UHGV virus genome: UHGV-1704081
Direction: 5' to 3' (one strand)
Source of the DNA: a virus
DNA length: 14,593 nucleotides
Under the pieces are notes generated by a model. The model was not told the DNA's origin. It saw nothing but the letters and a program-made list of their open reading frames with translations, and did not search any database. The translations under genes and the position numbers were made by a program. The number at the start of each line of letters is the position of its first letter. The stretch's first letter is position 1. Of the stretch, positions 1 to 14,593 are shown one piece after another.

Positions 1-95
1 AATGGCGCGACAAGGTTGATCACGAGCTAACAGTCAAAGACGGCGGCGCAATCCAGATTGAAACATCACCGATGAGCACTCTATTCGGAAAATGA
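1..95 (+). CDS. 3' end of upstream gene, probably terminase small subunit (P22 gp3-like); partial, truncated by window start
   Basis: Frame 3 is open from the window edge (…WRDKVDHELTVKDGGAIQIETSPMSTLFGK) to TGA at 93-95, which overlaps the ATG at 92-94 of the next gene (ATGA). Position directly upstream of the large terminase matches P22-like gene order. Identity is inferred from position only. Confidence 0.5.
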   Translation, partial: WRDKVDHELTVKDGGAIQIETSPMSTLFGK

Positions 96-1507
96 CCTCG
101 ATTAATCCTATCTTTGAACCGTTCATTGAGGCGCATCGCTACAAAGTCGCCAAAGGCGGTCGAGGTAGCGGTAAATCATGGGCAATTGCGAGGCTGCTTG
201 TTGAAGCGGCGCGCCGACAGCCTGTGCGTATTCTCTGCGCTCGTGAACTGCAAAACAGTATCAGCGATTCGGTAATCCGGTTGCTTGAAGACACCATCGA
301 GCGGGAAGGGTATTCGGCTGAGTTTGAAATTCAGCGTTCAATGATTCGTCATCTCGGAACTAATGCTGAATTCATGTTCTACGGCATCAAAAACAACCCG
401 ACGAAGATTAAATCGCTCGAAGGCATTGATATCTGCTGGGTGGAAGAAGCGGAAGCGGTAACGAAGGAATCATGGGATATCCTGATTCCAACCATCCGTA
501 AGCCGTTCTCTGAAATATGGGTGAGCTTTAACCCGAAGAACATCCTCGACGATACCTATCAGCGATTCGTCGTAAATCCTCCTGATGATATTTGTCTGCT
601 GACGGTGAACTACACCGACAACCCGCACTTTCCTGAAGTTCTCCGTCTGGAGATGGAAGAGTGTAAACGCAGAAATCCGACACTGTATCGTCACATCTGG
701 CTTGGTGAGCCAGTAAGCGCAAGTGATATGGCAATCATCAAACGTGAATGGCTTGAAGCCGCAACCGATGCGCACAAGAAACTCGGATGGAAAGCGAAAG
801 GCGCTGTTGTTTCTGCACATGACCCATCAGATACAGGGCCGGATGCCAAAGGTTATGCATCGCGCCACGGTTCGGTAGTTAAGCGCATTGCCGAAGGTCT
901 GCTGATGGACATCAACGAGGGTGCTGACTGGGCAACTTCGCTGGCGATTGAAGACGGTGCTGACCATTACCTGTGGGATGGTGATGGTGTTGGTGCCGGG
1001 CTACGCAGACAGACAACGGAAGCGTTCTCCGGCAAGAAAATCACCGCCACGATGTTCAAGGGCAGCGAATCGCCATTCGATGAAGATGCTCCGTATCAGG
1101 CCGGAGCATGGGCTGATGAAGTCGTACAGGGTGACAACGTTCGCACTATTGGTGATGTGTTCCGCAATAAGCGAGCACAATTCTATTACGCGCTGGCTGA
1201 CAGGCTGTATCTGACATATCGGGCGGTTGTTCACGGTGAGTATGCAGACCCAGACGACATGCTGAGTTTCGACAAAGAAGCGATAGGCGAGAAGATGCTG
1301 GAGAAGCTGTTTGCAGAACTGACGCAGATTCAGCGCAAATTCAATAACAACGGGAAGCTGGAGCTTATGACTAAGGTCGAAATGAAGCAGAAGCTCGGTA
1401 TTCCATCTCCTAACCTGGCTGATGCGCTGATGATGTGTATGCATTGCCCGGAGTCGGCTGCGCAACCCGACTATTCCAGTTACTCAATTCCTTGTGGTGT
1501 AGGTTGA
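92..1507 (+). CDS. terL: Terminase large subunit (P22 gp2-like ATPase/nuclease)
   Basis: 471-aa ORF. N-terminal P-loop-like Walker A (VAKGGRGSGKS) and Walker B-like stretch (DICWVEEAE). Size fits P22/Sf6-type large terminases. Sits immediately before the portal gene; stop TGA 1505-1507 is followed by the portal ATG at 1509. Confidence 0.9.
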   Translation: MTSINPIFEPFIEAHRYKVAKGGRGSGKSWAIARLLVEAARRQPVRILCARELQNSISDSVIRLLEDTIEREGYSAEFEIQRSMIRHLGTNAEFMFYGIKNNPTKIKSLEGIDICWVEEAEAVTKESWDILIPTIRKPFSEIWVSFNPKNILDDTYQRFVVNPPDDICLLTVNYTDNPHFPEVLRLEMEECKRRNPTLYRHIWLGEPVSASDMAIIKREWLEAATDAHKKLGWKAKGAVVSAHDPSDTGPDAKGYASRHGSVVKRIAEGLLMDINEGADWATSLAIEDGADHYLWDGDGVGAGLRRQTTEAFSGKKITATMFKGSESPFDEDAPYQAGAWADEVVQGDNVRTIGDVFRNKRAQFYYALADRLYLTYRAVVHGEYADPDDMLSFDKEAIGEKMLEKLFAELTQIQRKFNNNGKLELMTKVEMKQKLGIPSPNLADALMMCMHCPESAAQPDYSSYSIPCGVG

Positions 1508-1508
1508 T

Positions 1509-3707
1509 ATGGCAGAAAAAAAGATGACTGACTGGCATCGCAAGGTGCTGTGCAACTTTGATAATGCCTGGTCAGCAACGCAGGATATGCGTGAGCAGAT
1601 TATTGAGGCTCAACGTTTCGTACGTGTGTCCGGCGCACAGTGGGAAGGCAGCACAAACGCTGGTTACTCATTTGATGAAGGCAGGTTTGAGCATTACCCG
1701 CGCTTTGAACTGAATAAGATTGCCCGTGAATGTGATCGCATCATTGGCGAGTATCGACAGAATCGCATCAGCGTTAAGTTCAGGCCTAAGGATGACAAGG
1801 CATCGGAAGCGTTAGCCGAAAAAATGAACGGCAAATTCCGCGCTGACTATCAGGAAACATCCGGTGGCGAAGCGTGTGATAACGCATTTGATGATGCTGT
1901 AACGGGCGGATTCGGTTGTTTCCGCATGTGTGCCGATTACGAAGATGAAATGGATCCGAGTAACGAGCAGCGACGCATCAGTCTTCTTCCTGTTTACGAC
2001 CCAGCGACATGCGTCTTCTTCGATCAGGACAGCAAGCAATATGACCGCTCTGATGCTATGTGGGCTATGGAAATGTTCTCCATGACGCCTAAAGCGTTCG
2101 AGACTGAATACCCTGATTCCATCGCGGCAAGCCTTTCTCGTGATGACACTGGCACTCAATATGACTGGTCAACGCCCGATGCCATCTATGTTGGACGCTA
2201 CTACGAAGTTCGCATAGAGAAGGTGAAGCTCACGGCGTGGCGCAACCCTGTTAGCGGAGAAACGGCAATCTATGATGAAGAGCAAATCAAAGATATTGTC
2301 GACGAGCTGACCGATGGTGCATTCGAACTGATTGGCGAGCGAACGGTGAAGAAGCGCCGCGTTTATTGCGGTCTTCTGTCTGGCGCTGAATGGCTGGAAG
2401 AACCGAAGCGTATTCCGGGTGAACATATTCCTCTCATCCCGGTATATGGGCGTCGCTCATTTGTTGATAATCAGGAGCGAATTGAAGGCCACGCAGCAAA
2501 AGCGATGGATGCACAGCGTCTTGAGAACCTGATGGTTTCCATGATTGCAGATAACGCTACTCAGGCTGGCGGTGATGGCATTCCTGTAGTTGATGTTGAC
2601 ATGATTCCTGGTCCTCTCGCCGCTCATTGGGCGGAGCGCAACAAAAAGCGCCCGGCGTTCCTGCCGATGGTCAGTCTGAAAAACAAAAACGGAGATATTA
2701 CTGCGCAGGCTCAGGTCAGCAGTTATACGCCTCCGACACAAATGCCTCCAGCTCTTGCCGGGCTATTGCAGTACACCGGAACGGCTATTCAGCAAATTAC
2801 AGGTGCGTCGCAGCTTGAGAACATGCCGAGCAACGTCGCCACCGATACCGTTGATAGCATCTTTAACCGGATGGACACGCAGTCCTATATCTACATGGAC
2901 AACATGGCTAAATCCATGCGCCGCGCTGGCGTTGTGTGGCTTTCTATGGCGCGTGAAGTCTATGGCAGCGATACGCCGATGCGTATCGTTAATGAGGACG
3001 GCAGCGATGACGTGGCGCTGATGACTGGTGAAGTGGTTGACCGTCAGACAGGGCAGGTTATCGCGCTTAACGACCTTTCGCAGGGTAACTATGAAGTGAC
3101 TGTCGATGTCGGTCAGTCGTTCGCTACTCGCCGTGATGCAACGGTTAAGTCGTTACTTTCCATGCTGGCACTTATCCCGCCAGGAACGCCGAAGCATGAC
3201 CTTGTATCGTCGATGATTCTCGACAATATGGACGGCGAAGGGATGGACGACCTGAAAGAATACAACCGCAATCAGTTGCTTCTGTCTGGCGTTATCAAGC
3301 CGAGAACGCCTGAAGAACAGCAGATGGTTGAACAGGCGAAAAAACAACAGGCCAGTCAGCCAGATCCGGCTATGGTTGCAGCGCAAGGTCAGCTTCTTGC
3401 TGGTCAGGCTGAATTGCAGAAAGCGCAGAACGAACAGGCAGCCATTCAGGTTAAAGCATTCCAGGCACAGACTGATGCTCAGGTTGCAGCGGCAAATGTT
3501 GTGAAAATACTCGCATCTGCCGATAGTCAGCAGAAATCTGATATCCGCGAGGCTCTGAAACTGCTCGGACAGTTCCAGCAACAGCAAGGAGACAATGCCC
3601 GTGCTGATGCAGAGCTTGTCCTGAAAAGTCAGGCACAGGGCCATGCACAACGAATGGACATCAGCAGCATCCTGCAAAAATCAACTCAGCAACAACCACA
3701 GCAGTAA
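1509..3707 (+). CDS. Portal protein (P22 gp1-like)
   Basis: 732-aa ORF, size close to P22 portal as I recall it. Segments recognisable from P22 gp1 by memory (e.g. RRVYCG…GEHIPLIPVYG, C-terminal …QRMDISSILQKS…). Long A/Q-rich helical C-terminal region consistent with the portal barrel. Position after terminase. Confidence 0.9.
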   Translation: MAEKKMTDWHRKVLCNFDNAWSATQDMREQIIEAQRFVRVSGAQWEGSTNAGYSFDEGRFEHYPRFELNKIARECDRIIGEYRQNRISVKFRPKDDKASEALAEKMNGKFRADYQETSGGEACDNAFDDAVTGGFGCFRMCADYEDEMDPSNEQRRISLLPVYDPATCVFFDQDSKQYDRSDAMWAMEMFSMTPKAFETEYPDSIAASLSRDDTGTQYDWSTPDAIYVGRYYEVRIEKVKLTAWRNPVSGETAIYDEEQIKDIVDELTDGAFELIGERTVKKRRVYCGLLSGAEWLEEPKRIPGEHIPLIPVYGRRSFVDNQERIEGHAAKAMDAQRLENLMVSMIADNATQAGGDGIPVVDVDMIPGPLAAHWAERNKKRPAFLPMVSLKNKNGDITAQAQVSSYTPPTQMPPALAGLLQYTGTAIQQITGASQLENMPSNVATDTVDSIFNRMDTQSYIYMDNMAKSMRRAGVVWLSMAREVYGSDTPMRIVNEDGSDDVALMTGEVVDRQTGQVIALNDLSQGNYEVTVDVGQSFATRRDATVKSLLSMLALIPPGTPKHDLVSSMILDNMDGEGMDDLKEYNRNQLLLSGVIKPRTPEEQQMVEQAKKQQASQPDPAMVAAQGQLLAGQAELQKAQNEQAAIQVKAFQAQTDAQVAAANVVKILASADSQQKSDIREALKLLGQFQQQQGDNARADAELVLKSQAQGHAQRMDISSILQKSTQQQPQQ

Positions 3708-3797
3708 TTAACCCATAACGTGCAATGGCTGTCTTTATGAGGCCAGGCACCCTATTGCCTTCCGATGGGCTGAACATCGAGTAAACAGGGGTAACAA

Positions 3798-4691
3798 ATG
3801 GACCAGATGGCAGAAAACACACCAGAAGTTGAAATCGAAACCGACGCGTCAGAGCAGATTCCTGATGATGTCGAACTGGCTGAAGAAGTCGAAACAGAAG
3901 ATGGCAGTGAGTCCTCCGGCAATGATGCAGAGGAAGCTACTGAAACTGATGACGACGAATCAGAACAGGAATTCTACTTTGGTGACGAAAAGCTGGATTC
4001 GCCAACCAGCGAAGATAGCGCAGAGCATGGACTGGTAAAACACCTGCGCAAGACGATTAAAGAGAAAGACCGCGAGCTGAAAGAGCTGATGCGTCAGTCT
4101 CAGAAACCCGTCGAGCAGCAGCCGGTAATCACTCAACCACCGCGAATGCCAAAACTGGATGATGAGGACATCGGTTTCGATGAAGAAATCTATCAGCAAC
4201 GCATGGCTAAGTGGGCAGAGGATAACGGAAAGTACCAGCAACAGGAGATGGCTCGCAAGCAGAAGGAGCAGGAGCTTCAGGCTGCCTATCAAGAGCGATT
4301 ATCCAAATATCAGCAACGTGTTAAGGCTCTCAAAGTTCCTGGCTATCAGGAAGCTGAGCAGGCCGTACTCGAGGAAATTCCCATCGAGACACAAAACGCG
4401 ATCCTGTTTGAGTCAGAGAAGCCGGAAATCGTTGTTCTGGCACTCGGTCGCAACGCTGAACTGCGCAAGCAACTGGCAGAAGCTACCAACCCCGTAGCAA
4501 TTGGTCGTCTGCTGGAACGTATCGAATCGAAGGCCAGAATCATGCCAAAAGCAAAAACCACGGCAGCCACAACCCCGACAGTTAAGGGTAGCAACGGCGC
4601 AGTAATCAACAACCTCGACAAACTGAAAGCCAAGGCGCTGGAAACTGGTGACTGGACGCCGTATTTCGCCGCTAAAAAGGCAAAAAAATAA
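3798..4691 (+). CDS. Scaffolding protein (P22 gp8-like)
   Basis: 297-aa ORF between portal and coat. Very acidic low-complexity N-terminus, charged helical middle, basic C-terminal tail (…WTPYFAAKKAKK) resembling the coat-binding end of P22 scaffold. GGGG Shine-Dalgarno 6 nt upstream of the ATG. Confidence 0.8.
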   Translation: MDQMAENTPEVEIETDASEQIPDDVELAEEVETEDGSESSGNDAEEATETDDDESEQEFYFGDEKLDSPTSEDSAEHGLVKHLRKTIKEKDRELKELMRQSQKPVEQQPVITQPPRMPKLDDEDIGFDEEIYQQRMAKWAEDNGKYQQQEMARKQKEQELQAAYQERLSKYQQRVKALKVPGYQEAEQAVLEEIPIETQNAILFESEKPEIVVLALGRNAELRKQLAEATNPVAIGRLLERIESKARIMPKAKTTAATTPTVKGSNGAVINNLDKLKAKALETGDWTPYFAAKKAKK

Positions 4692-4709
4692 CCTATCGGA
4701 GCATTAAGC

Positions 4710-5963
4710 ATGGCTAACCAATTAGCAAAAGACCTTGAAATCATGTTCGAAAACTACGTTGAAGGCTTTGAGGCCGCCTGCGTAGTTTCCCGTAACGCTA
4801 AAAAATTCCGTCCCGGTGATACAGCAATGCAGCGAGCAGGTGATGTTCTGTATCGTCCGCAGCATTACCACATGAACATTGAAGAAGGCCTAGATCTCAG
4901 CGGCAAAACGCCAACAGCACTGGTTCAGCGCCTTGTTCCTTCTGTGTTCAAGGAGCCGAAAAACATTCTGTACACTCTGGATGCGCGTGAAATGCGTGAC
5001 CCTGAGCATAAAACTGAAGCTGGTCGCGCCGCAGGTATGCGCCTTGCTGCACAGATTGACTCTGACCTGATTTCCATGGTCACGCAGCGTGCTACTAACG
5101 TGATCACAATGGCTGACTCAACCACTGGTTCACAGGGCCGTGATTTGTGGAACTGTGCGGCAGGTATTGATGCCACCATGACGGCGATTGGTGTACCACA
5201 GGGTATCAACCGTCGCTCTTTCTGGAACCCCTTCAACTACAAAGACCTTGCTGGCGAGCTTGGTCACCGTGCCTATGCTCAGGGCGCAACCCTGACAGCA
5301 TACGAAAAAGCGCAAATCCCTCCGGTTGCGTCCTTTGATAGCTACAAGACCGATATTTCTGGTCGTGTTCCGAAGGGTACAGCAACTTCCCTGACGCTGG
5401 CGGCTGAACCTGCGCACAAGGTTGAAGCGAAAGATGCCAACGATATGCCAGTGGATAACCGACAGGGGACCATTACGGTATCTGCATCTGGTTTGCAGGT
5501 TGGCGATGCGTTTACCATCGCAGGCGTGAATTCCGTACACCAGATCACCAAAGATACCACCGGGCAGCCGCAGGTATTCCGCGTTCTGGCAGTAAGCGGA
5601 ACGACAGTAACTATCTCCCCGAAAATTCTGCCGCCTGACAACGCGGATGTCGCCAGCCGACCATATGCAAACGTTGATGCTAACGCGGCAAATGGTGCAG
5701 CAATTACCATTCTCAACAAAAATGCCGCACCGGCTAACCTGTTCTGGGCTGATGGTTCTGTTGAGCTGATGTACGGCAAACTGGCGTTCCCGACTGGTCA
5801 GGGTCCACAGGTAATGACAGCAACCACCGAGCAGGGCGCTACGCTGATCATGTCTTACGCCTTCGACCACATCAAAGGCGTAACCACTGCTCGTTTCACC
5901 ACTCTGTACGGTTGCTCTGTACTTGTTCCTGAATATACGGGCATCGTTATTGCCGGGCAGTAA
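4710..5963 (+). CDS. Major capsid (coat) protein (P22 gp5-like family, divergent from P22)
   Basis: 417-aa ORF directly after the scaffold gene. GGAG Shine-Dalgarno 8 nt upstream. Size and position match P22-like coat proteins. Followed by a strong stem-loop terminator. Confidence 0.85.
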   Translation: MANQLAKDLEIMFENYVEGFEAACVVSRNAKKFRPGDTAMQRAGDVLYRPQHYHMNIEEGLDLSGKTPTALVQRLVPSVFKEPKNILYTLDAREMRDPEHKTEAGRAAGMRLAAQIDSDLISMVTQRATNVITMADSTTGSQGRDLWNCAAGIDATMTAIGVPQGINRRSFWNPFNYKDLAGELGHRAYAQGATLTAYEKAQIPPVASFDSYKTDISGRVPKGTATSLTLAAEPAHKVEAKDANDMPVDNRQGTITVSASGLQVGDAFTIAGVNSVHQITKDTTGQPQVFRVLAVSGTTVTISPKILPPDNADVASRPYANVDANAANGAAITILNKNAAPANLFWADGSVELMYGKLAFPTGQGPQVMTATTEQGATLIMSYAFDHIKGVTTARFTTLYGCSVLVPEYTGIVIAGQ

Positions 5964-5970
5964 TTTTGGT

Positions 5971-5993
5971 GGGGCTTCGGCCCCATTTTTATT
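5971..5993 (+). terminator. Rho-independent terminator-like hairpin after the coat gene (probably partial/leaky)
   Basis: GGGGC-TTCG-GCCCC (5971-5984): 5-bp GC stem with a UUCG-type tetraloop, followed by ATTTTTATT. Starts 8 nt after the coat stop codon. Confidence 0.6.
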
Positions 5994-6004
5994 GGGAGAA
6001 GACA

Positions 6005-6193
6005 ATGGCACGAACAATGCTCTATAAGCCGGGCAACATGATCACCTGTGGTCAGGTTGCTGTCGATTACATCATTGTTGATGACGAAGAAGTTAAATCT
6101 CACCTGAAAAAAGGCTGGGTAAAAGCTCCTGAAGAAACCGCAACGAAGCAAAAAGTGGCTAAGGCGGAAGAAGATGGCGAAAACGAAGGGTGA
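6005..6193 (+). CDS. Small hypothetical protein (62 aa) between coat and gp4
   Basis: ATG at 6005 preceded by GGGAG (5994-5998) with 6-nt spacer. The ORF track's longer version starts at TTG 5966, inside the terminator, which is less plausible. 3' end overlaps the gp4 start by 20 nt. Charged C-terminal half (KQKVAKAEEDGENEG). No function assignable. Confidence 0.4.
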   Translation: MARTMLYKPGNMITCGQVAVDYIIVDDEEVKSHLKKGWVKAPEETATKQKVAKAEEDGENEG

Positions 6194-6635
6194 TCTCGTT
6201 CTAAAGGCTTTACGAAAAGCCGGGCTGTATTCCAATGCCACGTTGACAGATGCTGACCCTCAGGCAATTGAAGATGCCATTAATGACCTCGAAGACATGA
6301 TGGCAGCATGGCAGGCTAAAGGTATCGAGCTTGGATATCAGTTTGCGGATACAGAAAACGGCATCATGCCGTTACCTGACGATGATTCAGGTATCCCTGC
6401 ATGGGCAAATGATGGCGTCGCTTTGAAGCTCGCTGTGCAAGTGTGCATGGATAACGTCATTCAGCCGTCGGATGCTCTCCTGACCGCTGCTGACAGTGCA
6501 TATCAGACAATCTGTATCGCTTTAACCAAAATACCACCACTTGAGCGACGAAATGACATGCCTCGCGGTAGTGGTAACAAAAGCGCGTTTACGTGGAATC
6601 GGTTTTACATCGAGAAAGATGATCCGAGTACGTGA
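6174..6635 (+). CDS. Head-to-tail adaptor / portal-closure protein (P22 gp4-like)
   Basis: 153-aa ORF. N-terminus (MAKTKGDLVLKALRKAG…ATLTDADPQAIEDAINDLEDMMAAWQ) resembles P22 gp4 as I recall it. Position before the gp10-like gene. Confidence 0.85.
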   Translation: MAKTKGDLVLKALRKAGLYSNATLTDADPQAIEDAINDLEDMMAAWQAKGIELGYQFADTENGIMPLPDDDSGIPAWANDGVALKLAVQVCMDNVIQPSDALLTAADSAYQTICIALTKIPPLERRNDMPRGSGNKSAFTWNRFYIEKDDPST

Positions 6636-6644
6636 GGTGAATAA

Positions 6645-8063
6645 ATGCCGATTCAGCAACTTCCGCTTATGAAAGGCGTCGGCAAAGACTTTCGAAACGC
6701 CGACTATATCGACTATCTGCCAGTGAATATGTTGGCTACACCAAAAGAAATCCTTAACAGCAGCGGATATCTTCGCTCATTCCCGGGCATTGCCAAACGT
6801 TCTGATGTGAACGGCGTATCGCGCGGCGTCGAGTACAACATGGCGCAGAATGCTGTTTATCGTGTGTGTGGTGGCAAGCTGTACAAAGGAGAAAGTGAAG
6901 TCGGTGATGTTGCCGGAAGTGGTCGCGTATCAATGGCGCATGGTCGAACATCACAGGCGGTAGGCGTTAACGGGCAACTGGTCGAATACCGCTATGATGG
7001 CACGGTTAAAACCGTCTCAAACTGGCCTGCAGACAGCGGGTTTACGCAGTATGAGTTAGGTTCGGTTCGTGATATTACGCGCTTACGTGGGCGTTATGCG
7101 TGGTCAAAAGACGGTACTGATTCATGGTTCATCACTGACCTTGAAGACGAATCACATCCTGACCGATACAGCGCACAATATCGTGCAGAATCGCAGCCTG
7201 ACGGCATCATCGGAATCGGAACATGGCGAGACTTCATCGTCTGCTTTGGTTCATCGACGATTGAATATTTCTCCCTGACTGGCGCAACCACAGTTGGTGC
7301 TGCTTTATATGTCGCACAGCCATCGCTGATGGTGCAAAAAGGCATCGCCGGAACTTACTGCAAAACGCCATTCGCTGATTCTTATGCGTTCATCAGCAAT
7401 CCGGCAACAGGTGCTCCGTCTGTATACATCATCGGCTCCGGTCAGGTATCACCAATCGCCAGCGCGAGCATTGAGAAAATTCTCCGCTCCTACACTGCTA
7501 ATGAACTGGCTGATGGTGTGATGGAGTCTCTGCGATTTGATGCGCATGAGCTGCTGATTATCCATCTTCCGCGCCATGTTCTGGTGTACGACGCATCTTC
7601 AAGCGCCAATGGTCCGCAATGGTGTGTGCTGAAAACAGGCCTGTATGACGATGTGTACCGCGCTATCGACTTCATTTACGAAGGCAATCAGATAACGTGC
7701 GGCGATAAGCTGGAATCGGTTACTGGCAAATTGCAGTTCGATATCAGCAGCCAGTATGGGCTTCAACAGGAACACCTGCTGTTTACTCCACTGTTCAAAG
7801 CGGATAACGCCAGATGCTTCGATCTGGAGGTGGAATCATCCACTGGCGTAGCTCAGTACGCCGACCGCCTGTTCCTCTCTGCAACCACTGACGGCATAAA
7901 TTACGGACGTGAGCAGATGATTGAACAGAATGAACCGTTCGTTTACGACAAACGTGTTTTGTGGAAGCGAGTCGGGCGCATCAGGAAAAATGTCGGCTTC
8001 AAATTGCGCGTTATCACGAAGTCACCTGTCACTCTGTCTGGCGCTCAGATAAGGATTGAGTAA
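6645..8063 (+). CDS. Tail hub protein (P22 gp10-like)
   Basis: 472-aa ORF, the same length as P22 gp10 as I recall. N-terminus [16 protein letters not shown]…[27 protein letters not shown] matches my recollection of gp10. Stop overlaps the next start (TAATG at 8061-8065). Confidence 0.9.
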
Positions 8064-8911
8064 TGGCGGATTCGAATCTCAATGTGCCGGTAATCATTCA
8101 GGCTACACGGCTCGACACATCAGTCCTTCCACGCAATATCTTCTCGCAGTCGTATCTGCTGTACGTTATCGCACAGGGTACTGATGTTGGTAACGTGGCG
8201 AACAAGGCCAACGAGGCCGGACAGGGCGCTTATGACGCACAAGTCAGGAACGATGAGCAGGATGTGATTCTCGCTGACCATGAGCAGCGAATTTCTGCTG
8301 CGGAAGCAACGCTTGTTAATCATGAGGAGCGAATCAGCCAGGCAGAATCAACTCTTCAGGAACATGAAACACGAATAGCTCAGAATGAAAGCGATATTGC
8401 GTCGCTTGATACCAGAGTTCAGTCGCTGGAATCGCAGGTTTCAGACCATGAAACGCGCATCGATGCTCTGGAGTATGCCACTACTCGCAAGAAGTCAGAG
8501 GTTGTTTACTCTGGCGTATCTGTAACCATCCCGACAGCGCCGACCAACCTTGTTAGCCTGCTGAAAACGCTAACGCCGTCATCCGGCACGTTGGCACCAT
8601 TCTTCGACACCGTTAACAACAAGATGGTTGTGTTCAACGAGAACAAAACCCTGTTCTTCAAGCTGTCGATTGTCGGGACGTGGCCCAGCGGAACCGCCAA
8701 CAGGTCAATGCAGCTAACATTTTCCGGCTCTGTTCCTGACACACTGGTCAGCAGTCTTAATGCGGCGACAACGACCGATAACATCCTGTTAGCTACGTTT
8801 TTCAGCGTGGATAAAGACGGCTTTCTTGCCACAAATGGCAGTACGTTAACCATTCAGTCTAATGGTGCGGAGTTTACTGCTACAACCATCAAAATCATTG
8901 CGGAGCAGTGA
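8063..8911 (+). CDS. Tail needle (P22 gp26-like) with coiled-coil repeat region and extended C-terminal domain
   Basis: 282-aa ORF. N-terminal [27 protein letters not shown] is typical of the gp10-binding tip of tail needles. A central 14-residue tandem repeat (HExRI…) predicts a trimeric coiled coil. The ~140-residue C-terminal region is beta-rich (T/S/V-rich), longer than I would expect for a P22-type needle. Confidence 0.85.
8279..8473 (+). repeat. In-frame tandem 42-nt (14-codon) repeats, about 4.6 copies, encoding the needle coiled coil
   Basis: Units start at 8279, 8321, 8363, 8405 and 8447 (partial): [14 protein letters not shown] / [14 protein letters not shown] / [14 protein letters not shown] / [14 protein letters not shown] / [10 protein letters not shown] degenerate extra unit precedes at 8237. 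Confidence 0.8.
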
Positions 8912-9390
8912 TGGAAATAAAGCTCATCGATAATCCGGTGAAGCTTGCAGAATTCCTCAACAACCCGGCAAACACGGGAAATATCGTAGATAGTGGAGAC
9001 AAATACTACATCAAGCCTGATGCGGTATACCTCGGCATCTACGAAGGATTAGTGCTGGCTGGCGTTCATGAAGTGCGTAACTTCTGGCATAGCGTTGTTG
9101 AATGCCATGCGGTGTATGACCCCGGATTCCGTGGCGAATATGCACTGCAAGGGCATCGATTATTCTGCAAATGGCTTCTCGAAAACTCACCATTCCTTAA
9201 CAGCATCACTATGGTTCCTGACACAACGAAATACGGACGGGCAATTATCCGTTTGCTTGGCGCTACCCGTGTTGGTCACCTTGATGATGCTTATACCAGC
9301 AATGGAAAGCCTGTGGGCATCACGATTTATCAGTTACCGCGCTCAAAATACGAGGAGCTAACGAATGTTAATTTTCCAGATTGCCAATAA
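8911..9390 (+). CDS. P22 gp14-like protein (needed for ejection-protein function/assembly)
   Basis: ATG at 8911 overlaps the gp26 stop (TGATG) and has GGAG (8902-8905) 5 nt upstream. The ORF track's start at GTG 8908 leaves too short a spacer. ~159 aa, in the position of P22 gene 14. Confidence 0.75.
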   Translation: MEIKLIDNPVKLAEFLNNPANTGNIVDSGDKYYIKPDAVYLGIYEGLVLAGVHEVRNFWHSVVECHAVYDPGFRGEYALQGHRLFCKWLLENSPFLNSITMVPDTTKYGRAIIRLLGATRVGHLDDAYTSNGKPVGITIYQLPRSKYEELTNVNFPDCQ

Positions 9391-10018
9391 GCACCTCAGC
9401 AAAGCTGTTTACTGCAAAGGTGGCAGTGATGGCGGTTCAAAGGCACAGGAACGCGCAACTGAAAAGGGCATCGAATTGCAGCGTGAAATGTGGCAGACGA
9501 ACATGCAAAACCTTGCACCGTTCACGCCACTCGCTCAGCAGTACGTATCACAGTTGCAAAATCTTTCCTCTCTTCAGGGGCAAGGGCAGGAGCTTAACCA
9601 GTATTACAACTCCCAGCAGTACAAAGACCTTGCAGGGCAGGCGCGTTACCAGAGTCTGGCAGCAGCAGAGGCAACGGGTGGATTAGGCTCTACAGCAACA
9701 GGAAACCAGTTAGCAGCAATCGCACCTACACTCGGTCAAAACTGGCTGTCAGGTCAGATGAACAACTACAACAATCTGGCAAATATCGGCCTTGGCGCTC
9801 TTACAGGTCAGGCAAACGCCGGGCAGAACTATGCCAACAACGTCAGCCAATTGTATCAACAGCAGGCGGCAGCATCTGCGGCTAATGCGAATAAACCATC
9901 AGGATTTCAGAGCGCCCTTGGTGGAGCCGCAGCAGGTGCAGCTGCAGGTACTGCAATCATGCCTGGTTGGGGTACAGCAATTGGTGCTGGCGTCGGTTTT
10001 CTTGGTTCACTTTTTTAA
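9365..10018 (+). CDS. Ejection (injection) protein, P22 gp7-like
   Basis: 217-aa ORF with GAGGAG (9352-9357) 7 nt upstream of the ATG. Q/N/A-rich sequence and a glycine-rich hydrophobic C-terminus (…GGAAAGAAAGTAIMPGWGTAIGAGVGFLGSLF) fit a membrane-inserting ejection protein. First of three ejection-protein genes, as in P22. Overlaps the gp14 3' end by 26 nt. Confidence 0.75.
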   Translation: MLIFQIANKHLSKAVYCKGGSDGGSKAQERATEKGIELQREMWQTNMQNLAPFTPLAQQYVSQLQNLSSLQGQGQELNQYYNSQQYKDLAGQARYQSLAAAEATGGLGSTATGNQLAAIAPTLGQNWLSGQMNNYNNLANIGLGALTGQANAGQNYANNVSQLYQQQAAASAANANKPSGFQSALGGAAAGAAAGTAIMPGWGTAIGAGVGFLGSLF

Positions 10019-10030
10019 TGGAGGTGTCTC

Positions 10031-11392
10031 TTGGCTACATGGCAACAGGCTGGTAATTCAGGCGCGCTTCTTGCCGGGTTAGGCGGCATGAACTCCAACG
10101 CTCCAAGAGCAAGTGATGCAGACGCCACGCTTGCATACATTCGACAGAATAACGAGATGGAGCGTTCAGGACGTAATAACGTTGGCTTGCAGGCTTTGCA
10201 GGGCATTTCATCTGTCATGGATATGTATAAGCAGATGGATCAGCAGAAGCGACAGCAAGAGTTTCAGCAGGCTTATGCTGATGCATATACATCTGGTGAC
10301 CGCGATGCAATGCGAAAACTGGCATCACAGTATCCTGAGCAGTTTGACGCTGTAAGAAACGGCATGAAATTTGTCGATGAAGACCAGCGTTCCACTGTCG
10401 GCACACTGGCAGCAAGTGCCAGACTGGCAGCTTCATCTCCAGAAGCCATGATGTCATGGTTGCAGAACAACTCATCTGAGCTTACTCGTGCCGGAGTAGA
10501 CCCTCTGGATGTGGCGAAAATGTATCAGCAAAATCCACAAGGTTTCACAGAGTTTGTTGATCACCTTGGAATGGCTGCTCTTGGTCCGATTGATTACTTC
10601 AATGTTCAGGACAAGATGGCTGGTCGTGAAATTGACAGAGGCAGGCTGGCAGAGACAATCCGCAGCAATCAGGCTGGCGAGGCGCTAACAGCACGTGGTC
10701 AGAATATCACGATGCGCGGTCAGGATTTATCGATGCAGAGAGCATCAATGAAAGGGTCGGTTGGGAATAATGAGCGTACAGTTCAGTTAGCAGATGGCAG
10801 AACTGTAACGGTAGGCGGGAAGCTTCACGGCGCTGGGGCTAATGCGTTCTACGAAGGTATCGACAACGAGGGGAATATGGTTCGCGTCCCTGCTGGCTCT
10901 ATTGCCGCTCCGGCTACATCGGCAGCAAGCGCGCAGAATTACGCAATGAAGAAAGATCTTGATGCAATTTCTGGTGCATCAATTGACGATCTTGGCTTCA
11001 TGACTGGCATTACAGGCTCTTCAGGTTCTCCTGCTCTTGGTGCAGATATTCGTAGCCGTGTATCTGGTGGTGATCAGAGGAAACTATACAACGCTGCACA
11101 GCGAATCCAAGGAAAGATGCAGAATCAGGGCATTGCAGCAGCCAGAGACATGGGGGCATCCGGTATCAACACCGTTGCAGAAGCAAAGCTGTATTTTCAA
11201 GGTATGCCACAGGTTGATTTCTCAAGCCCTGAAGCACTGCAACAATCAATGCGCGACATTCAGCAATATACCGACAATTACAACCAACAATATAACGTTA
11301 ATGTTGGTAAATCTCAGCGGCAGCAATCTCAACCTACACAGGTATCACAGCCAGCAGCCAGCAGTAACTTTTCTTCACTATGGGGTGATTAA
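10031..11392 (+). CDS. Ejection protein, P22 gp20-like
   Basis: 453-aa ORF starting at TTG 10031, with GGAGG (10020-10024) 6 nt upstream. No in-frame ATG is available near the 5' end. Middle position of the three ejection genes. Stop overlaps the next start (TAATG at 11390-11394). Confidence 0.75.
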
Positions 11393-13257
11393 TGGCTAAA
11401 GCATGGAAAGATGTTATCGCCTCTCCACAGTATCAGGCGTTAACTGAAGAACAGAAAGCACAGGCTCAAGCGCAATATTTTGATGAGGTTGTTGCCCCTA
11501 AGGCTGGTGACAAATGGGCTGAAGCAAGAGATCAGTTTTATGCAGCATACCCTCCGCCTCAGCAGCAGAAAGAAGAACCATCATTGATGCAACAAGCTGG
11601 CGATTGGCTCACTGGTGGTCAAAGTGCAGGGCAAATTGCAGAACAGGCTGGTCGTGGTCTGGTAAACATACCATTTGACGTATTGCAGGGTGGCGCAAGT
11701 CTGATTAATGCAATCAGTCAGGGGCTTGGTGGCCCCAAGGTTTTGGACGATGTCTATCGTCCAGTAGATCGACCAACAGACCCTCATGCGCAAGCTGGAG
11801 AAACAATTGGCGGGTATTTAGTTCCAGGAGTTGGAACGGCAGGAAGCATGGCTATTGGATCACTGGCAGAGGCCGCAAATCAGAAAGGCGATTTCGCACA
11901 AAATGCAGCTAAAAATGCCGGAGTTAACCTTGCCGCTCAGGGGGTTCTTTCCGCAGCAGCAAAGGGAATAGGGCGTGGAATTACTGCTGTTCGTGGCGAA
12001 ATATCACCAGCAGATCAGCAATTGCTCAAGCGTGCCGCTGCGGCAGATGTACCAGTTATGACATCGGATGTAGTTCCTCCAAAAACAAAACTTGGCAATC
12101 AACTGCAGGGTTACTCAGAAGGAGTCATAGCTGGTACTGGACCAATGAGAGCCGCACAGCAGGATGCCAGAACCAAGCTTGTTAATCGCTTCACCGAAAA
12201 ATACGGCGACTACGATCCATCTGTAGTCGTTGATAGTCTAAAGTCAGGCGTTGCAAGGGAAAAATCGTTAGCCAAGTCAAAACTAAACAGCCTGTCAGGA
12301 AGAATGGTTGGAAAGCCAGTTGATACAAGTGGCGCCATAAGAGCTATCGACGGAGCAGTAAACGAACTTGGGAAACTTAAAGGTGTTTCTGACACCCAGA
12401 CCATTTCTGCGCTTAATGATTATAAGAATGCCATTCAGGAGATAACAAATGGAGATGATGCCTTTGAGTTACTTGATAAGCTGAGAACTCAGTTCCGCAT
12501 TGACGTAAAAGGCGATCGTACAGTTCTGCCATCAATGTCGCAAACAATGGTCGACAGGGTCTACAACTCGCTAACCAATAGCCTTAGTAAATCTATAGCG
12601 AAAGGACTTAGCCCAAAAGATGCTTCAGCATGGAGAGCGGGAAAAGCTGATTATGCAAAAATGGCAACACATGCAACTCAAACGCGCCTTAAAAACGTTC
12701 TAAACAAAGGAGATTTAACTCCCGAGGCTGTAAATACCATTGTGTATGGACAATATGGGTCAGATATAGCTCGATTGTACGGGAAACTCGATCAAAAAGG
12801 TAAAGACATGCTAAGGGCGGCATATATCAGCAAAATAGCTGACAAGGTAGGTGACAGCCCTCAGAAAATGATGACCGAGCTTGGCAAGCTGCAAAAACAA
12901 GCAAATGGTCAGGTGTTTAAAACTGTATTTGGTGGGAAGAACGGAAAAGAGATAGAGGGGATGTTATCTATTCTCGATGCTACCAAAAGAGCATCTGAGG
13001 CTAATGTTGTGACGAAGACTGGCATGACACTCGCGCCTTTGGTAAGGGTTATTGGTAACCTAAAAACCGGAGGCGCGCTATTGGCTGGGGAAACAGGGAT
13101 TGGCCTTATGTCGAGGGTTTATGAAAGCCCTATGGCTAGGAATGCGCTCTTACGTCTGGCAAACACTAAAGCTGGAACGCCAGCTTATGAAAGAGCGTTA
13201 AGCAAAGCTGCAAATGCCATCAGACCGCTGCTTGCCACTGAGGCAACACAGCAGTGA
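11392..13257 (+). CDS. Ejection protein, P22 gp16-like
   Basis: 621-aa ORF, close in size to P22 gp16 as I recall. Last gene of the ejection-protein trio. A/G/K-rich composition typical of this family. Confidence 0.8.
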   Translation: MAKAWKDVIASPQYQALTEEQKAQAQAQYFDEVVAPKAGDKWAEARDQFYAAYPPPQQQKEEPSLMQQAGDWLTGGQSAGQIAEQAGRGLVNIPFDVLQGGASLINAISQGLGGPKVLDDVYRPVDRPTDPHAQAGETIGGYLVPGVGTAGSMAIGSLAEAANQKGDFAQNAAKNAGVNLAAQGVLSAAAKGIGRGITAVRGEISPADQQLLKRAAAADVPVMTSDVVPPKTKLGNQLQGYSEGVIAGTGPMRAAQQDARTKLVNRFTEKYGDYDPSVVVDSLKSGVAREKSLAKSKLNSLSGRMVGKPVDTSGAIRAIDGAVNELGKLKGVSDTQTISALNDYKNAIQEITNGDDAFELLDKLRTQFRIDVKGDRTVLPSMSQTMVDRVYNSLTNSLSKSIAKGLSPKDASAWRAGKADYAKMATHATQTRLKNVLNKGDLTPEAVNTIVYGQYGSDIARLYGKLDQKGKDMLRAAYISKIADKVGDSPQKMMTELGKLQKQANGQVFKTVFGGKNGKEIEGMLSILDATKRASEANVVTKTGMTLAPLVRVIGNLKTGGALLAGETGIGLMSRVYESPMARNALLRLANTKAGTPAYERALSKAANAIRPLLATEATQQ

Positions 13258-13274
13258 CTAAATGCCATGGATGG

Positions 13275-13463
13275 TTATTTCCCTAGCACATGAAACAATG
13301 TTTGCTTTAATTCCACCCATACAATTATGACCACTATAGACAGACAAAAGAAACTGAATGCATTGGCATCACGATCGAAACCTTCTCCGGCACTAAATCC
13401 GTAAAAGGTCATAAAAAATATAAAAATTGCGCACTTTGCAACGTTTACAAATTTTTTCTTCAC
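13275..13463 (-). CDS. Small predicted two-helix membrane protein (62 aa from GTG; 87 aa if the upstream ATG at 13538 is used)
   Basis: Minus-strand ORF convergent with gp16. Strong Shine-Dalgarno AGGAGG (complement of 13469-13474) with 5-nt spacer before in-frame GTG (complement of 13461-13463). Product MKKKFVNVAKCAIFIFFMTFYGFSAGEGFDRDANAFSFFCLSIVVIIVWVELKQTLFHVLGK: basic N-terminus, two hydrophobic segments, short acidic loop. AT-rich. Confidence 0.55.
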   Translation of the reverse strand: MKKKFVNVAKCAIFIFFMTFYGFSAGEGFDRDANAFSFFCLSIVVIIVWVELKQTLFHVLGK

Positions 13464-13527
13464 ACCAACCTCCTTAGTTTTGCGCAGGATACCAGATGAT
13501 AATGTGTAGTTGGAGTAGCGCGGTTGC

Positions 13528-13594
13528 AATGCAAGCATTTTGTTTTAGTTTTATGCTTGCTTGTATGTGTGTACAGTGTATATAATGCAAGCAT
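13528..13594. promoter_or_regulatory. Three copies of a GCAAGCAT core motif (two direct, one inverted) flanking the promoter; candidate operator sites
   Basis: AATGCAAGCAT at 13528-13538 and again at 13584-13594 (11/11 identical; the second overlaps the -10 box). The inverted copy ATGCTTGC at 13553-13560 overlaps the candidate -35. Spacing is GCAAGCAT-N14-ATGCTTGC-N26-GCAAGCAT. Confidence 0.4.
13557..13586 (+). promoter_or_regulatory. Candidate sigma70 promoter for the downstream accessory ORF
   Basis: Perfect -10 TATAAT at 13581-13586. Candidate -35 TTGCTT at 13557-13562 (18-bp spacer), or TTGTAT at 13561-13566 (14-bp spacer). Lies about 34 nt upstream of the ATG at 13620, in an AT-rich intergenic region. 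Confidence 0.5.
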
Positions 13595-13619
13595 ACATCA
13601 CAACAAAGGTTCTTGCATT

Positions 13620-14588
13620 ATGACTGAAAAGAAAAGTGGCGAAGGGAAAGCTAAGGGCGGGATCGCTCGCGCAAAGTCGCTGACTAAAGAGCAGCGTTCT
13701 GAAATAGCAAAGAAAGCAGCTGCTGCAAGATGGAAAAGTAAGATTCTCAGGGCAACTCATCGTGGTAACTTTTTAGATGATTTTGGCATTGACGCTGAAT
13801 GTTATGTACTGGATGACGAGTCGAAAACTGTCGTTGTTACGAAAACTGGATTATCTCAGTTGCTAGGGATTGGTGAACATGCCAGGGATTTAGATCAACT
13901 GCTTGGCGCTCAGTATATGAGCAAATACCGAGATCTAGAATTGCAGCGAAAAATGGAAAATCCCTATAAATTTCAACTTACTTCGAAGTCTAAAACCGTT
14001 CATCAAGCGTTAGGTTATGACATTACAGCAATTGTTGATATTGGTAGGGCACTAATAGAAGCCAAAGATAATGACGATCTACCACAATCACGGTTAAAGG
14101 CAGCCGCCGCAGCACAGAGACTTATTAATGCCTCCGCTAAGGCGGGAATTAAGGGGGTTGCGTATGCGCTTGCTGGTTATCGCCCAGAAGTTCAGGCTGT
14201 CATTGACGAGTTCAAAGCGTTTGTTCGTGAAGAGGCTCGTCAATATGAAAAGGAATTTCCAGATGAGCTATACGAGGAGTGGTATCGACTGTACGGCCTG
14301 AATAGGCCAGAGAAAGGACGGCCTATTCGTTTTGGGCAGCTAACCAACATGCAGATATACACCCCGCTAGCAAAGAGTAAAGGTAAAATCCTTGAACAGA
14401 TTCGAGCCAGCCGAGACGAGAACGGAAAACAATCTGATAAGTTGCATCTGTTCCTTTCTGAAATTGGTGTCAAGGCTTTGCGTCAGCATATCGGTAAGCT
14501 TCTTGGTGTCGCAGCGATGAGTGAGACAAGAGAAGAATACGAAAAAGGAATAGAAAAGGTTTTCGGAAGAATGAAACCAGAAATCTAA
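13620..14588 (+). CDS. Hypothetical protein (~322 aa) with a highly basic N-terminal segment; function unknown, candidate accessory/defence gene
   Basis: Long ORF. ATG at 13620 preceded by AAAGG (13605-13609) and the TATAAT promoter. N-terminus MTEKKSGEGKAKGGIARAKSLTKEQRSEIAKKAAAARWKSK is K/R/A-rich, suggesting nucleic-acid binding. No Walker A, HNH or other catalytic motif seen by eye. The ORF track's TTG 13524 version adds 32 hydrophobic residues. Stop TAA at 14586-14588 is followed 2 nt later by ATG at 14591. Confidence 0.8.
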   Translation: MTEKKSGEGKAKGGIARAKSLTKEQRSEIAKKAAAARWKSKILRATHRGNFLDDFGIDAECYVLDDESKTVVVTKTGLSQLLGIGEHARDLDQLLGAQYMSKYRDLELQRKMENPYKFQLTSKSKTVHQALGYDITAIVDIGRALIEAKDNDDLPQSRLKAAAAAQRLINASAKAGIKGVAYALAGYRPEVQAVIDEFKAFVREEARQYEKEFPDELYEEWYRLYGLNRPEKGRPIRFGQLTNMQIYTPLAKSKGKILEQIRASRDENGKQSDKLHLFLSEIGVKALRQHIGKLLGVAAMSETREEYEKGIEKVFGRMKPEI

Positions 14589-14593
14589 TTATG

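Follow-up and report, generated by a model that had tools for sequence, protein, structure and literature searches.

This study concerns a 14,593-nt stretch of viral DNA, the UHGV virus genome UHGV-1704081 (the window), and within it the gene of a P63C-family protein together with an array of short repeated boxes around its promoter. The late region of a P22-like phage makes up the window, whose last part (positions 13258 to 14593) holds a leftward open reading frame (ORF) of 62 codons (13275-13463, minus strand), a 156-bp intergenic region and a rightward gene for a 322-residue protein (13620-14588, plus strand). Both ORFs were anticipated in a first-pass annotation made from the letters alone, which described the former as a convergent gene for a small membrane protein. 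At the DNA level the window is closest to P22-like (Lederbergvirus) phages and Escherichia coli prophages, in which gp16 is followed by a short leftward gene (sieA or another cassette), the P63C gene, a terminator, mnt (leftward), arc, ant and the tailspike gene. The interval between gp16 and mnt is the sieA/immI accessory locus of P22-like phages, as the first-pass annotation had recognized; this assignment is borne out by the gene order in relatives and by Leavitt et al. (2024, PMC10883804), who place sieA between genes 16 and 9. In the same paper sieA is reported from just 22 of the 66 P22-like phages sequenced.

The intergenic region contains four 10-bp boxes of the sequence ATGCAAGCAT or its inverted form ATGCTTGCAT, arranged in the order + - + -. 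Box 1 (13529-13538, plus strand, ATGCAAGCAT) is an upstream operator-like site. Box 2 (13553-13562, minus strand), which reads ATGCTTGCTT on the plus strand and is inverted with one mismatch, contains a -35 hexamer, TTGCTT (13557-13562). This is followed after an 18-nt spacer by a -10 hexamer, TATAAT (13581-13586, plus strand), whose last T is the first base of the core of box 3 (13585-13594, plus strand, ATGCAAGCAT), so that box 3 covers the -10/+1 region of a rightward σ70-type promoter. Box 4 (13609-13618, minus strand; GTTCTTGCAT on the plus strand), also inverted and with one mismatch (T at 13611), lies between a Shine-Dalgarno sequence (SD), AAAGG (13605-13609), and the ATG at 13620. The exact 8-mer TGCAAGCA is present in only two copies in the 14.6 kb, 56 bp apart and both intergenic; when one mismatch was allowed, five matches fell within 100 nt, a density reached in none of 300 shuffles. 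From the positions of the -35 and -10 hexamers, the transcript is predicted to start near 13593, giving a leader that includes box 4 only and is unstructured (z = +1.65). A scan for consensus promoters and terminators did not call the P63C promoter, the -35 hexamer of which matches the consensus at 3 of 6 positions, and no leftward promoter was located by the consensus promoter scan or by eye. The divergent promoter of the first-pass annotation therefore stands on its rightward side, which is readable and conserved in position across the 57 loci described below, and not on its leftward side. The G-to-T change of box 4 at 13611 (TTCTTGCA) distinguishes the window from the close relatives examined, which have the exact TGCTTGCA (L001 9512, L002 8151), and box 2 reads TGCTTGCT in all close E. 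coli relatives examined and in phage ST104. In the searched literature the box sequence matched primers only.

Conservation of the array was assessed at 80 loci, taken from one-genome-per-species data, that encode homologues with 41-72% amino acid identity to the 322-residue protein. The + - + - array was present at 55 of them, with modal start-to-start box spacings of 23, 31 and 24 bp and with the last box abutting the start codon. The exact 8-mer occurred 6.3 times per kb upstream of the gene and 0.032 times per kb, which is chance level, in the remaining ~10 kb of each locus, a difference of ∼200-fold. Labels on the array-bearing records range over Enterobacterales, Burkholderiales, Nitrosomonadales, Xanthomonadales, Alphaproteobacteria, Myxococcota, Acidobacteriota and Verrucomicrobiota, and two further records are metagenome-assembled genomes labeled as Firmicutes; labels of metagenome-assembled genomes need caution. 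The same array also accompanies ORF23 of ST104, whose product is 29% identical. The array stays with the P63C gene whether this lies beside cassettes of the sieA slot, after cI, or next to IS1 transposases.

When the arrays of 57 loci were aligned, the promoter and translation signals were found to keep their places relative to the boxes. The -35 candidate inside box 2 was TTGCAT in 37 loci, TTGCTT in 9 and TTGCAA in 9, and was followed by a spacer of 17-18 nt and a TAnaAT hexamer ending on the first base of box 3 (T in 70-88%, A in 80-88% and the final AT in 80-95% of the loci). AGGA stands directly 5′ of box 4, and in most loci other than the window the ATG start codon is supplied by box 4 itself (TGCTTGCATG). 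All four arms keep one sequence across phyla. Where the box differs, the protein does too, deviating boxes going with deviating protein subfamilies. In eight acidobacterial loci the main box is replaced by TACTTGC/GCAAGTA, and one further locus (L085) has GCACGCA. Most of the difference between the acidobacterial proteins and those of the main group lies in an N-terminal motif, with the Bro-N-like domain nearly identical, which is a hint that the N-terminal helices may read the box, one confounded by phylogeny. Upstream of L0095 in phage 933W, which encodes a homologue with 27% identity, three copies of ACGTGCA/TGCACGT replace the ATGCAAGCAT boxes (L007 3830-3916).

The protein encoded beside the array belongs to the P63C family (PF10546, E = 6.8e-14; phrog_2384, E = 1.7e-104). 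The Pfam match, with a score of 52.7 bits against a cut-off of 26.1, covers residues 199-286, and 29 of 29 aligned homologues match as well. Hence the statement of the first-pass annotation that the protein has no recognisable catalytic motif is half true, since a named Pfam domain is present, and its description as novel cargo was not sustained: the P63C family comprises 5950 clusters at 50% identity (E ≤ 1e-3), and the identical RefSeq protein, WP_000136767.1, is named 'P63C domain-containing protein'. The P63C domain was reportedly defined by Iyer et al. in 2002. No function for it is reported in the literature searched, and NCBIfam gave no match for the 322-residue protein. Three parts can be distinguished: a basic two-helix motif at residues ~10-38 (GGxARAxxLxxExRxxIAxKAAxARW), a beta/alpha domain at residues ~43-170, and a helical P63C domain at residues ~199-286 and beyond. 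An AlphaFold2 model of the whole protein had a mean predicted local distance difference test (pLDDT) score of 76. Foldseek matches in BFVD included Mx8 p63, the founding member, and Bro-N, Ant-N, KilA-N and 'repressor domain' proteins (E of 4e-3 to 1 for the Bro-N, Ant-N and KilA-N proteins), and the assignment of residues ~43-170 as a Bro-N/KilA-N-like domain is weakly supported by these model-based comparisons.

The allele of the window was found in 73 of 5426 complete E. coli genomes (1.3%), and WP_000136767.1 is identical in prophages of different structure. Three more of the classical accessory positions of lambdoid prophages harbour close homologues (62-80% identity), making four in all with the gp16-mnt interval: directly after cI, which is the rex/bstA position, in Klebsiella (ST104 has its gene there too); between Q and the holin genes in Enterobacter; and in the nin region next to roi in 933W. 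This is typical moron behaviour. A second P63C allele, 54% identical, occupies the same gp16-mnt slot in another E. coli prophage (L088 6001-6993, protein P0088) with an identical operator region and identical first 34 residues, which places a recombination boundary inside the gene, just after the N-terminal motif.

Outside phages, the gene was found in a second setting. A divergent single-ORF transposase of the IS1 family (NF033558, E values down to 4e-30; PF03400) begins next to box 1 in ∼50 of the 80 loci. In most of these a convergent gene encodes a protein of 73-97 residues that ends in the motif GGxARAxxLxxExRxxIAxKAAxARW; its C-terminus (...GGLKGGKARAxKLTxEERSEIAKKAAKARW) is the motif of P63C residues ~10-38, examples being L016 5969-6208, L018 3452-3685 and L027 5968-6261, all on the minus strand. 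This small-partner family has at least 8000 members, for which there is no Pfam or NCBIfam model and some of which are named 'histone H1' by NCBI. Phage copies of the P63C unit lack such a partner, and the small convergent genes that follow P63C in Klebsiella prophages were considered as this partner and rejected. In at least 25 loci the three genes are enclosed by two copies of a terminal inverted repeat, GGTAGTG(T/G)(C/G)TCAGTTTGAAAT, giving IS1-type elements of 2.3-4.7 kb (minimum 2.3-2.5 kb) in many phyla. One of them (L059 1452-3916) has perfect 22-bp repeats; others are L016 3973-6275, L066 1391-5260, L032 777-3534, L019 3125-6287, L064 2432-6264 and about 20 more. Cargo varies among these elements and includes dCTP-deaminase-like proteins (PF22769/PF06559), a DNA methylase-Mrr_cat fusion, DUF3800 proteins, PemK/MazF and HicA toxins and a CopG-type antitoxin (L017 3227-3976; L066 1526-2800; L064 2455-3876; L015 3174-3950; L078 3583-3993; L019 3402-3973; L048 6070-6759). 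P63C is a constant core gene of the IS1-type elements and not part of the variable cargo. No match to the inverted repeat consensus within 3 mismatches and no transposase ORF were found in the window, so the phage copy of P63C is not a resident transposon. Literature searches on ISMhu11 and on passenger genes of IS1 yielded nothing useful.

At its other end the P63C gene is closed, in relatives, by an intrinsic terminator. The last five positions of the window (14589-14593, plus strand) are the first bases of this terminator, and the ATG at 14591-14593, read in the first-pass annotation as another gene starting 2 nt after the P63C stop, was rejected as a gene start because it opens the terminator, beyond which mnt lies on the opposite strand in relatives. 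Phage 611R6, which is identical to the window through the final ATG, reads TAATTATGAAACCCACCGTCAGGTGGGTTTTTT there, an intrinsic terminator; relatives continue past the window end with ATGAAACCCACCGTCAGGTGGGTTTTTT, a stem-loop and T-run, before mnt; and after the P63C stop L002 and L001 read ...TAATTAT(G/A)AAACCCACCGTCAGGTGGGTTTTTT, again followed by mnt on the minus strand. One E. coli P22-like prophage has a gene for a 178-residue ClpP-family protease (PF00574; L088 7047-7583, minus strand) between P63C and mnt, a further and unexpected cassette of the immI region.

To the left of the array, the 62-residue ORF has a GTG start and occupies the slot that holds sieA in relatives. Hydropathy indicates two hydrophobic segments, at residues about 5-26 and 32-57, and the ORF matches phrog_21338 end-to-end over the 62 positions of that PHROG (E = 4e-45). 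The GTG lies six bases downstream of AAGGAGG (CCTCCTT on the plus strand), in a leader (13464-13528, minus strand) that is common to unrelated cassettes. In an alignment of the window with three relatives carrying different leftward genes, the sequences, read leftwards from the P63C gene, were identical over the leader and SD as far as the GTG, past which they were unrelated, and the boundary of cassette exchange lies exactly at the GTG start codon (window 13463/13464 and the equivalents in L001, L002 and L003). A second mosaic boundary lies ~35-55 nt into the leader (about 13495-13517), and a piece of 34-48 nt (window 13453-13500), which takes in the start codon, the SD and the beginning of the leader, is conserved alone in many E. 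coli prophages. The occupants of the slot are the 62-residue protein in the window and L001; SieA in L003, with the motif FGRYPGEAKVFNK, and in L089 (PF26849); a 161-residue lipoprotein with a lipobox in L090; and in L002 and L088 a ∼110-residue protein with an N-terminal transmembrane segment and a coiled coil. These are four unrelated proteins, all of envelope type. The comparison across relatives proposed in the first-pass annotation accordingly showed cargo that varies between kept flanks, with the junction at the start codon. By contrast, the single module envisaged there resolved into two independent cassettes, since the 62-residue ORF occurs without the P63C gene in JEP4, phiv205-1, UPF_BP1 and many E. 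coli prophages.

Copies of the ORF with ≥99% identity were found in 89 of 5426 complete E. coli genomes, in none of which RefSeq annotates it, and in three phage records; no annotation of it appeared in any of the records listed. A tblastn search with the protein returned near-identical copies only, and NCBIfam had no match to it. Like sieA, the ORF lies in a P22-like prophage with the homologues of genes 16 and 9 on either side, and on the opposite strand. A truncated sieA was considered for this ORF and rejected: the protein has no homology to the SieA of L003 (BLASTP E = 10), and the SieA motif FxRYPxEAxxFNK, present in that SieA as FGRYPGEAKVFNK, does not occur in its sequence. An 87-residue reading from the ATG at 13538 was rejected as well, since the GTG at 13463 is favoured by the exchange junction, by the SD and by the start that the PGAP annotation pipeline gives to sieA, and since in loci lacking P63C the homology stops short of 13538. 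Neither ORF is a core virion gene or a Mnt, Arc or Ant gene, identities that the first-pass annotation had named as refuting it. Neither gave a Pfam match to Mnt, Arc or Ant (ribbon-helix-helix, P22_AR_N/P22_AR_C), the genes for which lie past the window end in relatives, and both ORFs are of restricted occurrence in E. coli at the frequencies given above. From its position and protein type, a reasonable guess is that the 62-residue protein is a candidate envelope-level exclusion factor.

Upstream of the accessory region lie genes for gp7 (9365-10018; PF25688), gp20 (10031-11392; PF16928) and a gp16-type DNA ejection protein (11392-13257, plus strand). All three were identified with Pfam and PHROGs; the third, the last structural gene before the accessory region, matches phrog_770, 'DNA transfer protein' (E = 1.5e-241), and its relatives are annotated as the P22-gp16 family. 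The accessory region is AT-richer than the structural genes, as the first-pass annotation stated: its GC content is 0.422, compared with 0.503 in positions 1-13257 and a minimum of 0.460 among equal-sized upstream windows, and reaches 0.349 in the small ORF and 0.391 in the intergenic region. The change does not come directly after gp16, where that annotation placed it. The drop begins in the 3′ part of gp16, GC content being already 0.455 in 12000-13257 (the 3′ third of the gene), and this suggests one mosaic, AT-richer segment comprising both the 3′ end of gp16 and the accessory cassettes. Mutations by which P22 escapes SieA map to the C-terminal third of gp16 (PMC10883804), and the GC drop coincides with this region. 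In E. coli EC556 (L004 3229-6375) the annotation gives the gp16 homologue as a truncated pseudogene, with ∼1.4 kb to the P63C gene, and the P63C protein is intact and identical; the EC556 prophage is probably defective.

Taken together, we consider it likely that the region consists of two independent moron cassettes and that P63C is a sequence-specific DNA-binding autorepressor acting through the four boxes. The leftward cassette would express a 62-residue protein with two transmembrane segments by means of the leader, SD and start position that sieA uses in relatives. The rightward cassette is a self-contained unit with its own σ70 promoter, SD and terminator, in which the P63C protein may bind the four boxes overlapping the -35, the -10/+1 region and the SD/start codon, repress its own gene and so keep its level low and constant in the lysogen. 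Autogenous repression is the simplest account because the array is linked to the P63C gene and the boxes co-vary with the protein subfamily, and that P63C binds the boxes and represses itself is inferred with fair confidence from these sequence patterns. The boxes would be read by the basic two-helix motif, alone or together with the Bro-N-like domain. Since box 1 is near their starts, P63C may also affect the leftward cassette or, in IS1-type elements, the transposase. As to the effector role of the helical domain, the preferred guess is a tightly dosed protein that would act, like prophage proteins of the BstA type, on the DNA of the element or of its competitors; enzymes and antirepressors are thought less likely here. 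A part of P63C in exclusion or defence is plausible.

Several observations weigh against this account. The canonical array is missing in 25 of the 80 loci, many of which have variants. The BFVD matches are weak (E of 1e-3 to 1, TM-score, a measure of fold similarity, up to 0.53), Pfam searches with 29 members at E ≤ 5 returned P63C only and no Bro-N, KilA-N, HTH, ANT or P22_AR domain, and in the PDB a sequence search found no relative and Foldseek on the better model gave only E > 2, so that the Foldseek check proposed in the first-pass annotation produced weak resemblances in BFVD and no relative of solved structure. The PADLOC check proposed with it was negative for both proteins, no family being found at E ≤ 1 for the 322-residue protein in PADLOC-DB v2.0.0 (dated 2023) or for the 62-residue protein. 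In IS1-type elements the small protein named 'histone H1', which has the same motif as the P63C N-terminus, may be what actually binds. In a longer transcript, hairpins could just as well arise from the inverted boxes, and all copies of the 62-residue ORF are ≥96.8% identical, so that selection on it is not measurable.

The hairpins are the basis of a reading at the RNA level, in which the pairs formed by boxes 1/2 and 3/4 in a 5′ leader would sequester the SD and AUG and regulate translation or termination, whether or not a protein takes part. Boxes 1 and 2, like boxes 3 and 4, form an inverted repeat, the predicted hairpins (-14.0 kcal/mol, z = -2.85; -10.8 kcal/mol, z = -3.59) are more stable than those of shuffled sequences, box 4 overlaps the SD/ATG, and both arms change together in variant subfamilies. 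Such hairpins would, however, require transcription from further upstream. The boxes are read as DNA operators rather than RNA stems because the conserved -35 and -10 between boxes 2 and 3 predict a transcript that lacks boxes 1-3 and has the unstructured leader described above, because one sequence is kept in all four arms across phyla where two independent stems should covary freely, and because no Rfam family matches: at a permissive threshold the 5′ region gave chance matches only (E ≥ 0.6), far below the gathering scores. Control by RNA is therefore judged quite improbable. A similar though slightly lower standing is given to P63C as an Ant-like antirepressor or lysis-lysogeny regulator of immI with no part in exclusion or defence, which we regard as very unlikely. 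The gene adjoins mnt, arc and ant, its product has a weak fold resemblance to the Ant N-terminal and Bro-N domains, and the 933W homologue neighbours roi; but there is no P22_AR_N, P22_AR_C or ANT match, the gene does not move together with the alleles of ant, mnt and cI, and full-length homologues with 45-50% identity reside in IS1-type transposons of other phyla, with no phage repressor there. The presence of P63C in such non-phage transposons argues against an antirepressor specific for a repressor.

The same transposons raise the alternative that P63C is a core regulator of IS1-family elements that was captured by phages and serves self-regulation only, the 62-residue ORF not being a real gene. 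The 25 or more loci in which P63C lies inside terminal inverted repeats with a divergent IS1-family transposase and the small partner speak for it, as does the absence of the 62-residue ORF from the annotation of all 89 genomes. Against it, the window has no transposase or inverted repeat remnant, the phage copies are intact, with the identical WP_000136767.1 in differently built prophages, the promoter and terminator are kept at each of four different accessory positions, and the 62-residue ORF combines a strong SD with membership of a PHROG family and a start at the sieA junction; this alternative is considered unlikely. Somewhat better placed, if still doubtful, is the proposal that P63C provides single-protein defence of the BstA kind (abortive infection or interference with replication), with the boxes as a dosage control and as a self element like aba. 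A single prophage protein with a KilA-N-like N-terminal domain, BstA is encoded after cI and is neutralized by a cognate DNA element that overlaps the beginning of the bstA gene (Owen et al. 2021, PMC8585504), and the boxes of the P63C subfamilies overlap the starts of their genes. P63C is of the same architectural class (about 310-320 residues, an N-terminal KilA-N/Bro-N-like domain and a helical C-terminus), hhalign aligns its residues 46-84 with residues 9-53 in the KilA-N-like region of BstA, homologues stand right after cI in ST104 and in Klebsiella prophages, and the IS1-type carriers ferry dCTP-deaminase-like, methylase/Mrr, DUF3800 and toxin-antitoxin genes. Homology to BstA is nevertheless not significant (BLASTP E = 0.82; hhalign probability 13.8% over 39 columns of an N-terminal beta-hairpin/helix), PADLOC gives no match, and the constant core role in IS1-type elements fits element maintenance or regulation at least as well.

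Returning to autorepression through the boxes as the favoured reading, a wider and more speculative extension, to which we give a small chance, is that P63C represents a widespread and hitherto unrecognised class of single-gene, self-repressed, DNA-targeting effectors working in the manner of BstA, in which the boxes would set the dose and mark the carrier as self, and foreign DNA without boxes would be hindered in its replication or establishment. If true, it would explain why the unit of gene and boxes is found at four lambdoid defence hot spots and also as the core of IS1-type elements. Neither the box array nor this core role is recorded in the searched literature, Rfam, Pfam or PADLOC. 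For P63C, a large family without a solved structure, the array is the first concrete experimental entry point, as a binding site, a reporter and specificity variants can be read directly from the sequence. The region from gp16 to P63C/mnt is a cassette slot for small envelope proteins and offers cheap candidates for new exclusion proteins, and the IS1-family group, with its constant P63C/'histone H1' core and variable cargo of toxin-antitoxin and defence genes, bears on the movement of defence genes between phyla.

Compared with known systems, the 62-residue ORF shares with sieA of L003 and L089 its slot, strand, leader, SD and GTG start position, and both encode membrane proteins on the prophage side, as predicted from the sequence for the 62-residue ORF. 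SieA differs in having about 160-200 residues and at least four transmembrane helices, whereas the 62-residue protein has two hydrophobic segments and neither the motif nor any similarity. P63C resembles BstA as a single prophage protein of about 310-320 residues with an N-terminal domain of KilA-N/Bro-N type, putative in P63C, and a helical remainder, and in the cI-downstream position of some homologues, although the gene stands between gp16 and mnt in the window and in its relatives from E. coli and Salmonella. For either protein a short DNA element, cognate for BstA and putatively so for P63C, overlaps the gene start and varies with the protein variant. The aba element, however, is a 63-bp sequence with terminal direct repeats, while P63C has four 10-bp repeats around a promoter and is also found in IS1-type transposons. 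Judged by sequence, P63C is not a member of the BstA family, and a functional parallel with BstA, the closest functional analogue that can be named, is put forward as a hypothesis.

With proteins of the Bro-N/KilA-N/Ant type (P22 Ant, Roi, Rha), P63C shares a putative beta/alpha domain of DNA-binding type at the N-terminus, a helical C-terminal domain and a location in phage accessory or regulatory regions, including immI; it differs in its additional N-terminal basic two-helix motif and in having no Pfam match to them. IS1-family elements with passenger genes are matched by the distant P63C loci, which lie inside IS1-type inverted repeats with a transposase (NF033558, PF03400), whereas the window has the P63C gene and box array alone, as a phage moron. 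The arrangement of the boxes is most readily compared with autorepressed multi-operator promoters such as those of P22 Mnt/Arc (Pant/Pmnt), lambda CI and IS1 InsA, where operators likewise overlap the -35, the -10 and the gene start, repeats are spaced for cooperative binding and the regulator is encoded beside its sites, as P63C, the presumed binder, would be. In sequence the boxes bear no relation to the Mnt, Arc, CI and InsA sites, and the array further differs from these systems in the strict + - + - order of its boxes, conserved across phyla together with the promoter, SD and ATG.

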